From assembly GCA_043821485.1 (NCBI GenBank), contig JBDRCU010000038.1, positions 1-60,028 on the forward strand: a stretch of 60,028 bases of DNA, read 5' to 3'. Made by a program: the position numbers and the translations under genes. The stretch comes from Parcubacteria group bacterium (lineage in GTDB: Bacteria > Patescibacteriota > Minisyncoccia > 2-02-FULL-40-12 > IGHO2-01-FULL-4-A). The notes beneath the pieces are model-generated. The model was not told where the DNA came from, ran no database searches, and was given only the letters and a program-made list of their open reading frames with translations. Below are positions 1,448 through 6,960 of the stretch, in pieces (within the stretch, counting starts at the first letter, position 1; every line of letters begins with the position of its first letter).

Positions 1448-2857
1448 ATGGCTGAAAAGGTACGAACACGTATAGCACCGTCGCCAACGGGTTTTTTGCA
1501 CATTGGTACGGCTCAGATTGCGCTTTTTAATTGGCTTTTTGCCCAACATGAAAAGGGTGAGTTTTTGGTTCGTATAGAAGATACAGACAAAGAGCGTTCC
1601 AAAAAGGAATTTGAAGATGATGCACTTGAGGGTCTTAAATGGTTAGGCCTTGAATGGGATGAATTTTATCGCCAGAGCGACAGAACTGATATCTATAAGA
1701 AATATATTGAGCAATTACTTGATTCTGGTAAGGCGTTTTGGTGCCATCATACAAAAGAAGAACTTGAGAAAGAGAAAAAAGCACAACAGGAGAGAAAAGA
1801 GGCGCCAAGGCATTTGTGCGAGTATAAGAAGGAGGGTGGCACAGGCGTGGATCGCGGGATAATCCGTTTATCAGTGGATCATGATTCTGACAAAAAGATC
1901 CGTTTTACAGATTTGATTAAAGGCGAGATAGAATTCGAGGAGAAACTCATCGGAGATTTTAGCATTGCAAAAGATCAAGATACTCCGCTTTTTCATTTAG
2001 CAAATGTCGTAGATGATTTTGAAATGAATATTACAAACGTGATAAGAGGAGACGATCTTCTTGCAAATGTTCCCAGACAAATACTGCTAAGGGAAACTCT
2101 TGGACTCACAGGAATTCAGTATGCTCATATGCCAATGATATTGGCTCCGGATAAATCTAAACTCTCTAAACGTCATAGTGCCACTGCTTTGCATGAATAC
2201 CGTGAACTGGGGTACTTGCCAGAGGGAATTATAAACTATCTAACACTTCTTGGATTTTCACTTCCTGAAGATAGAGAAATAATTGAGATTAATGAGTTGA
2301 TTAAGATATTTGATCTGACCAAAGTACATCAATCAGGCGCTGTTTTTGATATTAAAAAATTAGGCTGGGTCAACGGAGAATACATCAAAAAAATGTCGAA
2401 CAATGATTTAGCTGAAATGCTCAAACCAATGATAGAGCAAATATTCAAAACGGATATTAAAGAAGAAACGCTTTTGCAGTTGACTCCGCTGTTTCGTGAG
2501 AGAATGAAGAAGCTAAGCGATATTAAAGATTTCGACTATTTTTTCAAGGAGCCTGAATACGATAAGGAATTATTGATTTGGAAGGCTCGAACAGATAAGG
2601 AGGTAAAGAACTCGCTTACAGAGGTCAGGAGAATATTGGAATCAAATGGGTTAGATGACATTCAAAAGCTTCGTGAGCAACTCGATGAGCTTGGTAAACG
2701 TCTAAAAGATAGGGGATTAGTCTATTGGCCATTGCGTGCAGCCTTGACTGGCAAGGATAAATCCCCAGATCCAGTAGATATTGCTGGAGTTTTGGTTAGC
2801 AATATGGGCATTGACGAGATTTTAAAAAGGATAGATAAAGCGATAGGTAAATTATGA
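1448..2857 (+). CDS. gltX: Glutamate--tRNA ligase
   Basis: RIAPSPTGFLHIG (HIGH), RIEDTD, VIRGDD, KLSKR (KMSKS) motifs. Confidence 0.97.
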   Translation: MAEKVRTRIAPSPTGFLHIGTAQIALFNWLFAQHEKGEFLVRIEDTDKERSKKEFEDDALEGLKWLGLEWDEFYRQSDRTDIYKKYIEQLLDSGKAFWCHHTKEELEKEKKAQQERKEAPRHLCEYKKEGGTGVDRGIIRLSVDHDSDKKIRFTDLIKGEIEFEEKLIGDFSIAKDQDTPLFHLANVVDDFEMNITNVIRGDDLLANVPRQILLRETLGLTGIQYAHMPMILAPDKSKLSKRHSATALHEYRELGYLPEGIINYLTLLGFSLPEDREIIEINELIKIFDLTKVHQSGAVFDIKKLGWVNGEYIKKMSNNDLAEMLKPMIEQIFKTDIKEETLLQLTPLFRERMKKLSDIKDFDYFFKEPEYDKELLIWKARTDKEVKNSLTEVRRILESNGLDDIQKLREQLDELGKRLKDRGLVYWPLRAALTGKDKSPDPVDIAGVLVSNMGIDEILKRIDKAIGKL

Positions 2858-4110
2858 GATTCATTTTGAACAAAATATCGATTGTAATTCTTCTGGTGCT
2901 TTTTGTGGCTATAGGTATGAATTTCGCTTTGGCTGCAAGCAAGGAAGATCGCATTCTTGATTTGAGGCAACAGATCGAAGAGCTTACTAGGCAAGCAGAA
3001 CAATTCAGAAAAAATGTTTTGGACAAACAGCAAGAATCAAATACTTTATCCCGTGAGATTTCAATAATTAATAATCAGATTTCAGCTCTCCAAGCAGAGA
3101 TAAACAGAACTTCCAATGAAATAGAAACAACTGAAATTGAGATAGTAGACCTTGAGGGTCAAATTTTTGATACAGGACAAACCATAGATACGCACAAAAG
3201 AACATTAAGCGAACTCATGGTTTCCATGTACGAACGTGATCAGATGGGGATGGTCGTAATGCTTCTTAGTAATGAACACCTGTCAGATTTTGCAGATGAA
3301 GCACAACAAATTGAAACGCTGAATGCGCAGTTATCAAAAATAGTTACTGATTTAAAAGAACAGAAGAATTTTCTTGAGGATAATAAGAATGAGCTTTCAG
3401 ATAAGAGGGGTAATCTACTCGTACTTAACGATCAGCAATTCAATCAACGAAACTCGCTTGGTTCTAGCCGTAACCAAAAAGATAATGTCCTGAGTGAGAC
3501 AAAAGGAGAAGAAAAGAAATATCAGGAATTACTGAATGAGGCTGAACAGAAGAAAGCCCAATTTTTTCAGGAGCTACAAGCGCTTGAAAGTGAAGCACGT
3601 GAAACAGGAACATTTATAGTCCATGTAACAGCCAGTAATGTACCTGCAAGAGGAACAGAGCTCTATCAGTGGCCATATGAAAAATTTGTTAATACACAGG
3701 GATACGGATATACAGCTTATGCAAATCGTGGAGCCTATGGAGGGGCCCCGCACAATGGAATAGATATTGTTAGTGGTTATGCTAGTCCAATCAGATCAAT
3801 AGGGGATGGTAATGTTTTGACTGCAGGTTTTAATAATGGATTTGGAAACTGGGTAGCAATTCAACATGACAATGGCATGGTCAGTCTCTATGCTCATATG
3901 AATTCTCCTGCACGTCTTGGGAATGGTACGGATATTAAAGCAGGGGATACAATAGGGTTTGAAGGTTCCACAGGGAACTCGACGGGGTCGCATCTTCATT
4001 TGAGTTTATATACCGATTTCTTTACATATATAAGGCAAAGTAATGGCCAGATATACTTTAATTATTTTGATGGTACGGTTAACCCATTTGACTATTTGGT
4101 AAAAAGATAG
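2854..4110 (+). CDS. Secreted coiled-coil protein with C-terminal M23 peptidase domain (murein hydrolase)
   Basis: Signal/TM N-terminus, long coiled coil, HNGID, YAHM, GSTGNSTGSHLH M23 motifs. Confidence 0.88.
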   Translation: MRFILNKISIVILLVLFVAIGMNFALAASKEDRILDLRQQIEELTRQAEQFRKNVLDKQQESNTLSREISIINNQISALQAEINRTSNEIETTEIEIVDLEGQIFDTGQTIDTHKRTLSELMVSMYERDQMGMVVMLLSNEHLSDFADEAQQIETLNAQLSKIVTDLKEQKNFLEDNKNELSDKRGNLLVLNDQQFNQRNSLGSSRNQKDNVLSETKGEEKKYQELLNEAEQKKAQFFQELQALESEARETGTFIVHVTASNVPARGTELYQWPYEKFVNTQGYGYTAYANRGAYGGAPHNGIDIVSGYASPIRSIGDGNVLTAGFNNGFGNWVAIQHDNGMVSLYAHMNSPARLGNGTDIKAGDTIGFEGSTGNSTGSHLHLSLYTDFFTYIRQSNGQIYFNYFDGTVNPFDYLVKR

Positions 4111-4116
4111 TATACT
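4088..4116 (+). promoter_or_regulatory. Consensus sigma70 promoter TTGACT-17-TATACT
   Basis: Exact spacing read from sequence; overlaps the M23 gene end and points to ORF 4241. Confidence 0.6.
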
Positions 4117-4240
4117 TTGAATACAAGAATGAGATAGGTGACAGATCCTTCCCGGGTGTGCCGAGCACAGTCCAGGGTCCAGGGAAGGGGATTTCCACTC
4201 AGCTCAGGACTTTTTTCCCTTCGGGGACGGAGGTAATGAG

Positions 4241-4429
4241 ATGAGGACTGAATTGACCTGGAGCGAGGCGGTCGGCCTTCTCTCCGGAGCTCTCGATGGC
4301 GAGAAGTACAGGAGGAAGGAGATTGAAAGAATCTCCATGAGGAAGGCAGCCCATTCTAGGGCGGTGGCGAGATTCGCTGTGAAACGTCATCGTCAGAACA
4401 AAAAGAGCGACGGAAAGAAAGGGGACTAG
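4241..4429 (+). CDS. Small basic hypothetical protein (62 aa)
   Basis: GGAGGT SD 9-10 nt before ATG, upstream promoter, downstream AAGCCCGC...GCGGGCTTTT stem (4479-4521). Confidence 0.6.
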   Translation: MRTELTWSEAVGLLSGALDGEKYRRKEIERISMRKAAHSRAVARFAVKRHRQNKKSDGKKGD

Positions 4430-4720
4430 ACCCCTTCAAACCGTTGCCAGCACCCATGGTAATATCACCATAGGCTAGAAGCCCGCAGTATCACTTCACG
4501 ATACACTTCACGCGGGCTTTTCAACTTTTAGAAACAAAAAAATAGATACCCATACCACGGAGCAGGGGAGTAGTGGCCTTTTTTATAAAATAGAATCTAT
4601 AATTTCATATAAAAATATTTCTATCCCTTCCTTGTGCCATCCAAGATATTTTATTGCATGTTACAAAATATGAAATGTCAAATGTTTCACGAAACGTAAC
4701 AACTGTGGATAACTTTATGC

Positions 4721-4748
4721 ATGTCGCACAATATCGGGTCTATTGAAA
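4721..4748. other. dif/Xer-like recombination site candidate 1 (11-6-11)
   Basis: ATGTCGCACAA-TATCGG-GTCTATTGAAA; left arm resembles the XerC arm of dif. Confidence 0.35.
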
Positions 4749-5121
4749 AGAGGAGTGATACGTAAACATACTGATTCATATATTGATAGATATGTCCACT
4801 AGTTTGTCTGGCTACTTGAGTAGTATCAATAGGGGTATATATATGTGTTTTTATAACAATTCTCTGTTTCATTCTTATTATCTATCTCTTTAATATCTAT
4901 ATGTATTTAAGGCGTTCTAGAATCGTTTCTAACGGTCTTTGATATACCAAAAGGTACAATCACCCTCGGAGAAGATTATCTTTAGTTTATATAACAAAAT
5001 AGAGCATTAAAGAGGATACATATGTATACTAGGGAGTCATTAAATGGTCTGTAGGCCAAAGGTAGTTCGAGGCTCTAATATATTAAGTATTCGTTATATA
5101 TAGATATTCAAAGAATATACT

Positions 5122-5149
5122 ATGTCGCACAACCTACATTGTGCGACTG
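5122..5149. other. dif/Xer-like recombination site candidate 2 (symmetric 11-6-11)
   Basis: ATGTCGCACAA-CCTACA-TTGTGCGACTG; left arm identical to site 1, arms are 9/11 inverted repeats. Confidence 0.45.
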
Positions 5150-5387
5150 CATATATTTCAGAAAAGGTCACTTTTTGTATTACTCCTCTATTCCATAGTA
5201 TTAGTTATCTCAATTGAATTTTATTTATTAGTAATAAGGAGCATATCTTTTAAAAGTCATCTCGTTCTCTCCTCCCCCATAGGTAGCTTTTTTTATACGC
5301 TTGATTAATTCCGATTATTATGGTATATTAATATTATTAAATCGGGCCACTCCCCTGTCTCATTTAAATGGGGGTATGGAGGATCCG

Positions 5388-5555
5388 ATGGGAAAGAGGG
5401 AAAAGAAGGAAGAAGAGAAATTTGATGGACAGTTCGGGCTTTTTGAGACCGGGCTGAACATCAGCAAAAAGCCTCCACTTCCAGTAGAGCTGGAGATGGA
5501 ACAGATCCGAGCCAGAGTAGCTCGGAGAGAGGAGAAAAAAGAAGTACACGCCTAA
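5388..5555 (+). CDS. Small charged hypothetical protein (55 aa)
   Basis: Within ORF 5301..5555; GGAGG SD before ATG 5388; TTGATT(5301)-17-TATATT promoter; downstream hairpin. Confidence 0.55.
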   Translation: MGKREKKEEEKFDGQFGLFETGLNISKKPPLPVELEMEQIRARVARREEKKEVHA

Positions 5556-6207: not shown

Positions 6208-6960
6208 ATGTTTTATAAAACCCTTAAAGAATTTAAAGAAGATAACGGATACGAAATAGAAGGCATTTGGTATCCTCGTGTTACATCTATTGTTTCAATA
6301 AAAGCTAAACCGGCACTCCTTCACTATTATGGAGGTCACAAGAGCTATGCTCATGCAGAAGCTGCTATGAATCGTTCAGCAGAGGAAGGTACGCTAGTCC
6401 ATGAAGTAGTAGAGGCTATTTTCAATGGTGACTCCCCCGCTGTTCCGGAAGATATTGAGCCTGTCATTAGTGAATTTATAAGTTTTAATAATCAAAGAAA
6501 TATTATTGCTCATCAAATTGAGCCTCAAGTTATTAGTAAGAAGCATAATTATGCCGGCACACTAGATGTGATTGCAGAGATTGATGGAAAGCTTGGCGTT
6601 CTGGACATCAAAACATCACAAGCAATCTATAGAGATTATAATATTCAAACCGCCGCATATGTTGAAGCACTCAAAGAAGATGAATCTGTTCCAGAACTAA
6701 CTCGTTGGATACTTAGACTCGATCAATCACGGCCATGTCTTAATGGTTGTGGAGCGAAACTTCGTGAAAAAGGAGGGAATGTAAAAGTTTTAAACTCATG
6801 GAATGGTAAAGCCAGAACATGTTCGCATTCATGGGGACCTGTTACTGGCGAAGCTGAACTCAAAGAATTAGACAATCTCGAACACGACACCAAGGCATTC
6901 CTTGCAGCAAAACAACTCTGGGAATGGGAACACCATGAATGGTTAAGTCAGATTACCTAA
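6208..6960 (+). CDS. PD-(D/E)XK (RecB-family) nuclease-like protein
   Basis: PRVTSI, GTLVHE, YAGTLD...LDIKTS and Q-x-x-x-Y motifs typical of RecB/phage-exonuclease-like nucleases. Confidence 0.8.
   Translation: MFYKTLKEFKEDNGYEIEGIWYPRVTSIVSIKAKPALLHYYGGHKSYAHAEAAMNRSAEEGTLVHEVVEAIFNGDSPAVPEDIEPVISEFISFNNQRNIIAHQIEPQVISKKHNYAGTLDVIAEIDGKLGVLDIKTSQAIYRDYNIQTAAYVEALKEDESVPELTRWILRLDQSRPCLNGCGAKLREKGGNVKVLNSWNGKARTCSHSWGPVTGEAELKELDNLEHDTKAFLAAKQLWEWEHHEWLSQIT

Follow-up and report, generated by a model that had tools for sequence, protein, structure and literature searches.

A probable dif site at the replication terminus of a Parcubacteria genome, with a lone copy of its arm in a putative promoter remnant nearby

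What does an exact 11-bp repeat near the left end of a contig from a Parcubacteria group bacterium stand for: a pair of dif-type Xer recombination sites left by an integrated element, or one site at the replication terminus with something else beside it? The stretch of DNA analysed here (the window) is 60,028 nucleotides long and is one contig (C38) of an 877-kb assembly of 63 contigs. The 11-mer ATGTCGCACAA is found in it at 4721-4731 and again at 5122-5132, and an earlier note had read the two copies as 11-6-11 sites around a non-coding insert, that is, as a dif site of the candidate phyla radiation (CPR), possibly at the terminus, plus the scar of an Xer-integrated element. We confirmed that both copies are exact and that there is no credible open reading frame (ORF) between them, but only the copy at 5122 turned out to be part of a two-arm site, and the copy at 4721 is an arm without partner. 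The best joint explanation is a dif site at 5122-5149 and a lone arm at 4721 that was inherited with the promoter of a gene since lost, and we give this explanation a probability of about 0.6.

Relatives of the window genome were sampled at two depths: 61 genomes of the same family and order, and 401 genomes from 283 genera of the class. As background control, the reversed version of each site pattern was scanned over the same genomes. Genomes, contigs, fetched loci, families and genera carry our working labels (G, C, L, f and g), and the coordinates of the features are collected in Table 1. The genome has five copies of the 11-mer ATGTCGCACAA where about 0.4 would be expected, and the three copies outside this locus are all within coding sequence and have no extended similarity.

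Table 1 Features of the putative dif locus in the window
Feature	Position	Strand	Remarks
M23 peptidase gene	2854..4110	+	Conserved left neighbour of the dif locus; Pfam PF01551, E = 4.8e-24
DnaA-box motif CTGTGGATAACTT	4703..4715	+	Perfect box (TGTGGATAA = reverse complement of TTATCCACA); upstream edge of the conserved promoter
Lone Xer arm ATGTCGCACAA	4721..4731	+	No partner arm; exact copy of the putative dif arm, placed like an operator in a probably decayed promoter
-10-like TCTATT and Shine-Dalgarno (SD)-like AAGAGGAG remnant	4739-4744; 4748-4755	+	Aligns with the promoter of relatives; no ORF behind
Non-coding filler, 390 bp	4732..5121	.	Fills the slot of a gene for a membrane protein of 113-153 amino acids in relatives
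dif site (very likely)	5122..5149	+	Left arm ATGTCGCACAA 5122-5132, spacer CCTACA 5133-5138, right arm TTGTGCGACTG 5139-5149
PD-(D/E)XK (Cas4-like) nuclease gene	6208..6960	+	Conserved right neighbour of dif in the family; Pfam PF12705, E = 7.5e-6

The two-arm site and the replication terminus

The arms of the site at 5122-5149 form a perfect 9-bp inverted repeat (GTCGCACAA/TTGTGCGAC), with 9 of the 11 arm positions complementary, and the full palindrome is present only once in the genome. When the relatives were searched for TGTCGCACAA-N6-TTGTGCGACT with up to 3 mismatches, the pattern was found in 33 of the 61, nearly always once per genome, against 6 genomes for the reversed control. In the class sample, GTCGCAYAA-N6-TTRTGCGAC with up to 2 mismatches was present in 216 of the 401 genomes and in 164 of the 283 genera, and the reversed control was present in 13 genomes. 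The 28-bp site could be followed in this way, at one copy per genome, through the family, the order and the class. The two arms are not kept equally: TTGTGCGAC is near-invariant across the class, while the opposite arm varies (GTCGCATAA, GTCGCAAAA, GTCGTAAAA; consensus GTCGCAhAA), and this inequality resembles that between the XerD and XerC arms of classical dif.

The position of the site was then compared with GC skew and gene orientation. The cumulative GC skew of the window has its maximum at 6853, which is 1.7 kb right of the site and coincides with the turn of gene orientation at 6960/6971. The gltX gene (1448-2857), the M23 peptidase gene and every other ORF up to 6960 are on the plus strand, and the ORFs from 6971 on are mostly on the minus strand. 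The convergence of genes seen by the earlier note is real, but its turning point is the one just given and lies away from the site. A closed relative of 615,149 bp (G036, assembled from 31 pieces) has its only site at 60,654, its global cumulative skew maximum at 67,297 (6.6 kb away) and its minimum at 389,639. The dnaA gene of G036 is at 385.6 kb and adjoins the skew minimum, so the site is opposite the origin. On the long contigs of five more relatives (G003, G005, G016, G008 and G048) the plus-to-minus switch is 0.8-16 kb from the site, which means that the site tracks the switch in 7 genomes in all. In the window genome itself, dnaA lies at the minus-to-plus switch of another contig (C37). 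The placement of this locus at the replication terminus, as proposed before, was upheld by the skew maximum of the window, by the site of G036 near the global maximum and by the switch in the five further relatives. As for KOPS-like polarity, by which FtsK would be guided to dif, the most replichore-polar words of G036 are G-rich (GAGGGGA, GCAGGGG), a signal that is inseparable from coding and SD bias.

The genome encodes exactly one recombinase of family PF00589, a protein of about 303 amino acids on contig C57 (48458-49366). Its gene, xer, is not linked to the site, which is on a different contig (C38). Xer scored about equally on the NCBI models of XerD, XerC and archaeal XerA, of which only the XerA cut-off was passed (233 vs 220 bits), and the XerS-type model NF003462 gave 113 bits only. 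It is conserved in 56 of the 61 relatives, and in most relatives it is single-copy and 61-78% identical. All seven relatives whose Xer has less than 55% identity were without the dif motif (7/7), as would be predicted if enzyme and site co-evolve. The genome also encodes one FtsK with a gamma domain. In two relatives (G033:C43:18366-20540 and G057:C17:5073-7241) the xer frame is 735 amino acids long and the Xer match is split into two parts (1-255 and 252-303) by a stop-free gap of about 1.2 kb; these frames probably hold an intein inside Xer.

A two-arm format of about 28 bp, a single copy, a terminus position and a co-distributed Xer, by which dif sites are recognised, were all found at 5122-5149. 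We consider it very likely that this is the dif site at the replication terminus, and the earlier reading of a CPR dif site stands on its uniqueness, its class-wide conservation, its place at the skew switch and the Xer and FtsK encoded in the genome. One Xer monomer would occupy each 11-bp arm, strands would be exchanged across the 6-bp spacer, and chromosome dimers would be resolved at the terminus, with Xer at dif probably directed by the FtsK that carries the gamma domain. Xer binding, recombination, repression and FtsK dependence are all predicted here from sequence. Some relatives (L015:1448-1473, L125, L126) have a second arm pair about 30-40 bp from dif, which is outward-facing and reads TTGTGCGAT-N8-GTTGCACAA.

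The lone arm and the putative gene slot beside it

Where the right arm of the 4721 copy would be expected, the sequence reads GTCTATTGAAA, which has at most 2 of 9 bases in common with an arm, so this copy is a lone arm. Of about 33 relatives, 7 have extra exact arms of this sort at 0.2-0.6 kb from the full site, against an expectation of about 0.006 per genome. In G018, G007, G006 and G021 they are 0.2-0.4 kb from the full site, and the DnaA-box motif CTGTGGATAACTT is just left of each of these arms.

The surroundings of the arm were compared by promoter alignment of 24 loci. In most of the window family and in family f4 the order is CTGTGGATAACTT, a -35/-10 promoter, a strong ribosome-binding site and a gene for a small membrane protein, and the window stretch aligns with ATGTCGCAAAATATTG-TCTAAT-GAGAGTAGGGGGG...ATG of G012. 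The arm of G012 and G015, TGTCGCAAAA, is located between -35 and -10 and the small gene downstream is intact; the homologous arm of G011, G021 and G006 is TGTCGCACAA, and that of G011 again precedes an intact small gene. The distance from arm to -10 is 5-7 nt in G012, G015 and the window genome, and a like geometry is seen at some xer promoters. G006 has retained GGCAGGGAAGGGG..ATG after its arm, like the SD remnant in the window. Because the lone arm and its flanks are homologous to the promoter and leader of relatives, they are regarded as resident, inherited sequence. G011 and G021 are members of two genera but share a near-identical box-arm junction, CTGTGGATAACTTTTTATA(A)TGTCGCACAA, and this argues for inheritance and against separate integrations. 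The scatter of arm-bearing genomes over the Xer tree also speaks for a promoter arm. An ordinary -35 without arm is present in G008, G001, G043 and G003, and in genus g8 the DnaA-box motif is inverted and stands beyond the arm. According to this proposal the arm at 4721 would be no recombination junction, and would have been passed on vertically within a promoter made of box, -35, arm, -10 and SD. We think it probable that the lone arm is such an inherited promoter arm beside a vacated gene slot.

The motif CTGTGGATAACTT may be a binding site of DnaA, as its match to the consensus suggests. About 20 of the 24 loci (families f1 and f4) have it at a distance of 0.02-0.55 kb from dif, each time in the same orientation. 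Loci that have lost the small gene and its promoter still contain the box, which in G017 is 10 nt from dif. A related organism in a groundwater run has retained the box, which is followed there by ACGTCGTACAATATAGG. A combination of DnaA box and arm at a second locus of genus g6 was rejected, as it is conserved coding sequence.

The small gene encodes a protein of 113-153 amino acids whose N-terminus resembles a signal peptide and whose hydrophobic C-terminus is conserved (LKAIAILAINLFLIVIQT..LKALLPFL), and the gene ends about 50 bp before dif. It was found in 12 of 26 family genomes (L012-L017, L026, L226-L236) and is absent from the window genome; no Pfam domain was found in this protein family. 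In the window, the slot is occupied by the filler at 4732-5121, in which no start codon or ORF follows the SD remnant, no Rfam match was obtained, and of which neither the genome nor any fetched locus has another copy. It was therefore rejected as a mobile repeat. It was also rejected as a recognisable pseudogene of the small gene, since tblastn and a profile search of the six-frame translations were blank. With no trace of the small gene left, decay of the gene is indistinguishable from its replacement by other DNA. Other genera have fillers unrelated to that of the window; in G017 the DnaA box abuts a single dif and there is no filler, and its congeners G006 and G021 have an arm and 184-202 bp in this place. 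We propose that the small gene would have been lost in the window lineage, that about 390 bp of unrelated non-coding DNA came to fill its slot, and that the DnaA box and the arm were kept.

The region around the filler was also searched for RNA features. A 27-nt inverted repeat (4740-4766/5172-5198, 81% complementary) brackets the filler and dif, and as RNA 4732-5210 folds better than its shuffles (z = -3.3) with this repeat as closing stem, for which no counterpart was found in four relatives. The Rfam scan of 4050-5450 gave no match at gathering scores and only chance-level ones at E up to 5, and ARAGORN found no tmRNA in 4050-5450 and no tRNA or tmRNA between the sites. A structured RNA in 4050-5450 was rejected on the blank Rfam and ARAGORN results and the lack of a counterpart of the stem in relatives. 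Between the M23 gene and the AT-rich promoter there is a GC-richer stretch (4110-4530), whose only ORF is a basic one of 62 amino acids (4241-4429); behind this ORF comes a hairpin that has a T-tract (about 4479-4522). Positions 4181-4343 are covered by a metatranscriptome contig, and G017 is wholly without this stretch.

As for the neighbouring genes, in genus g7, too, the M23 gene adjoins the dif locus on the left. The nuclease gene on the right is the last plus-strand gene before the switch of orientation and skew, and its homologues are directly downstream of dif in many loci of the family and in metagenome contigs. In family f3 the downstream neighbour is a PolB-exo-like 3'-5' exonuclease, and neither type of nuclease is present in some loci (the nuclease genes of relatives are, for instance, L002:1633-2337 and L004:652-1338). 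The linkage of dif and nuclease was confirmed in 25 metagenome loci of nuclease relatives, all of which were too distant to show the site of the window lineage in its empty or occupied state. A functional link of the nuclease gene to the terminus is possible.

Alternative explanations of the locus

The claim that the locus holds the scar of an Xer-integrated element did not survive the comparison of relatives. In its most explicit form, a mobile integrative element that exploits Xer (an IMEX, here of the type of the CTX phage) would have entered at dif, and 4721 would be a hybrid site (chromosomal left arm, element spacer, degenerate right arm), followed by a 373-bp remnant and the restored dif at 5122. 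A good arm with a degenerate partner, a filler and a full dif are indeed the architecture expected from CTX-type integration, fillers are unrelated from genus to genus, and the box abutting a lone dif in G017 resembles an 'empty' site next to its arm-bearing congeners. However, the -10-like and SD-like sequence right of the arm has its homologue in the promoter and leader resident in relatives, and in G012, G015 and G011 the arm stands in the resident promoter with the orthologous small gene intact. The junction shared by G011 and G021 across genera points to inheritance in place of separate integrations, and the filler has no genes, second copy or similarity to viral contigs. In G021 the flank-side arm differs from the left arm of the G017 empty site and the full-site arm is identical to it, which is the opposite of simple integration. 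Directly after the lone arm come the six bases TATCGG, which resemble TGTAGG, the spacer as read on the bottom strand, and not the top-strand CCTACA, so a bracket of direct repeats is unproven. At 4721-5149 we found no direct-repeat sites, foreign junction, or element genes or relatives elsewhere, by which an IMEX would be recognised, and we judge this kind of integration to be improbable.

A further point for integration comes from viral DNA. In IMG/VR, 70 contigs (L149-L218) carry the exact GTCGCAYAA-N6-TTRTGCGAC, against 2 for the reversed control, so phages that exploit Xer at a dif of this type probably exist. In the fetched parts of these contigs a tyrosine recombinase was found in only 2, both distant (24-32% identical), and no host Xer, M23 gene or close nuclease homologue was found. 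The contigs are candidates for integrase-less phages that may use the Xer of the host. Phages of this kind do not explain the filler of the window. The filler was rejected as a phage remnant, as its similarity to the 70 contigs is limited to the site itself.

Another explanation leaves out the element and takes the lone arm and dif as the borders of a swappable slot in the manner of dif modules, whose content would now and then be deleted, inverted or replaced by Xer, possibly helped by another arm-like sequence, the arm being a working recombination or accessory site and no operator. This would account for slot content that varies strongly between genera while both borders (the box with arm, and dif) are kept, for an arm that is perfectly preserved in the window although its promoter looks dead, and for the inverted DnaA box beyond the arm in genus g8, as after an inversion with its breakpoint at the arm. 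But a single arm is unable to assemble the usual synapse of four monomers, and many genomes in which the slot is equally variable (G008, G001, G043 and G003 among them) have an ordinary -35 and no arm. Arms are also found at xer promoters, where no cassette exists. In three public runs, in which the locus was in short contigs at a depth of 2-5, no excision or inversion junctions and no polymorphism were seen. Slot swapping is unlikely in our view, if not to the degree of CTX-type integration.

The palindrome at 5122 could also be something other than dif, namely an operator through which a transcription factor would control the nuclease gene next to it, or a hairpin or terminator in RNA. In many members of the family the site is 50-100 bp upstream of the PD-(D/E)XK gene, and in the fold of 4732-5210 mentioned above the palindrome forms a hairpin. 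Against this, the site is conserved in family f3 in front of the PolB-exo-like exonuclease and in some loci with neither gene, and in the window it is 1 kb from the nuclease gene; because the downstream neighbour varies, the palindrome does not serve any one gene as its operator. The site follows the skew switch in 7 genomes, is absent from relatives with a diverged Xer, and has neither a T-tract nor an Rfam match. The inner arm bases CGCAyAA/TTrTG moreover resemble GCGCATAA/TTATG of E. coli dif. A site with another function than dif is hardly credible after all this.

Several points weigh against dif plus an inherited promoter arm as well. In an assembly of 63 contigs the terminus could be located at contig level only, and contig C49 (12 kb) has a plus-to-minus switch of its own at about 7.6 kb where the dif motif is absent, probably a local change of gene orientation. 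About 40% of the relatives with a conserved Xer gave no site at the mismatch levels used. No trace of the small gene was detectable in the filler, and the slot content, which differs by genus and is absent in G017, also fits turnover driven by recombination. The -35 beside the lone arm is degenerate in the window genome, and no canonical promoter was found when the region of 4721 was submitted to promoter prediction, so the arm may be vestigial, or may serve a role at the DNA level in place of that of an operator.

Arms at xer promoters, known systems and significance

Lone arms are not restricted to the terminus. In the window genome, TTGTGCGAC is present at C57:48422-48430 (L001:1126-1134), followed by 15 nt, TATACT, 6 nt and the GTG start codon of xer. 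Of 30 xer loci from three families, 21 have an arm with up to 1 mismatch in the 150 nt upstream of the gene, where about 0.07 per locus would be expected. Most often the promoter reads TTGTGCGAC-N14-16-TATAAT and the start codon comes 3-7 nt behind the -10, which means that the arm is the -35 of a leaderless gene; in some genomes GTCGCACAA is located 6-7 nt before the -10 of xer, with the same geometry as in the small-gene promoter. A fixed position of the motif over the core promoter across species, which is expected of an operator, was thus found at both the xer and the small-gene promoters. A wider Xer regulon was rejected, as elsewhere the 9-mer occurs at about chance frequency and its copies are in coding sequence. 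To our knowledge, lone arms on the xer promoter or beside dif have not been described for single-recombinase Xer systems.

The arm on the xer promoter suggests that Xer may also act as a repressor, and probably of its own gene. The lone arms are most likely operators. In the simplest view, an Xer monomer on such an arm would block RNA polymerase, which would result in autorepression of xer and in repression of the promoter adjacent to dif. In the window the DnaA box and the arm are perfect though the promoter looks dead, so the pair may have a role beyond the promoter. We can only tentatively suggest that Xer may have a second job as transcription factor with lone arms as its operators, that the terminus locus of Parcubacteria-type bacteria may be a small module of cell-cycle control reading both DnaA, the initiator of replication, and Xer, the enzyme of dimer resolution, and that box and arm may be kept by an action on dif. 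If this is true, the pair would survive the loss of the gene through that action, e.g., by loading Xer or by shaping the synapse.

Single-recombinase systems are known as XerH/difH in Helicobacter and Campylobacter, XerS/difSL in streptococci and lactococci, and XerL/dif in Legionellales (PMC5357621, PMC1914069, PMC9765430). The system described here is like them in having one tyrosine recombinase, a two-arm site near the terminus, FtsK, and a site mimicked by mobile elements. In contrast to XerS, however, the recombinase has the length (about 303 amino acids) and sequence type of XerC/D, and in contrast to difSL (31 bp) the site is of the classical 11-6-11 format with 28 bp and xer is unlinked to dif. 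Archaeal XerA is also a single recombinase, with a conserved 28-bp dif of near-symmetric arms and a variable linkage of xer and dif (PMC2958812, PMC5357621). The single recombinase and the 28-bp near-symmetric site are shared with XerA/dif, and the protein passes the XerA model cut-off, but XerA is independent of FtsK and its dif is often not opposite the origin, whereas here there is an FtsK with gamma domain and the site is opposite dnaA at the skew maximum. XerCD/dif of E. coli and B. subtilis is matched in the 11-6-11 format, the single copy, the position at the terminus or skew switch and the better conservation of one arm, but not in the number of Xer paralogues, which is only one, or in the arms, which are nearly palindromic.

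The locus is also similar to IMEX such as the CTX, VGJ and TLC phages of Vibrio and LME-1 of Legionella, in that a full dif and a partial site bracket extra DNA and that viral contigs share the site type; unlike in IMEX, the partial site is within a resident promoter, and the bracketed DNA is geneless, single-copy and unlike the viral contigs. The dif modules of Acinetobacter are short variable segments bounded by Xer-type sequences (PMC12907356, PMC9947245). These pdif modules have complete XerC/XerD sites on both sides and are mobile with plasmids, whereas the slot described here has only a single arm at one border, and transfer was not seen. A full-text literature search, incomplete in coverage, found no paper joining Patescibacteria, Parcubacteria or CPR with dif or Xer, and none on Xer half-site operators.

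The finding gives a large uncultured group with tiny genomes a class-wide dif consensus, GTCGCAhAA-N6-TTGTGCGAC, together with a single-recombinase Xer system. As a landmark of the terminus, dif can be used to orient and check fragmented CPR assemblies and to flag phages or elements that insert there. A repeated dif arm beside dif, on the other hand, is not by itself proof of an integrated element. Finally, the lone arms in promoters suggest that a housekeeping recombinase may regulate genes, its own gene included.

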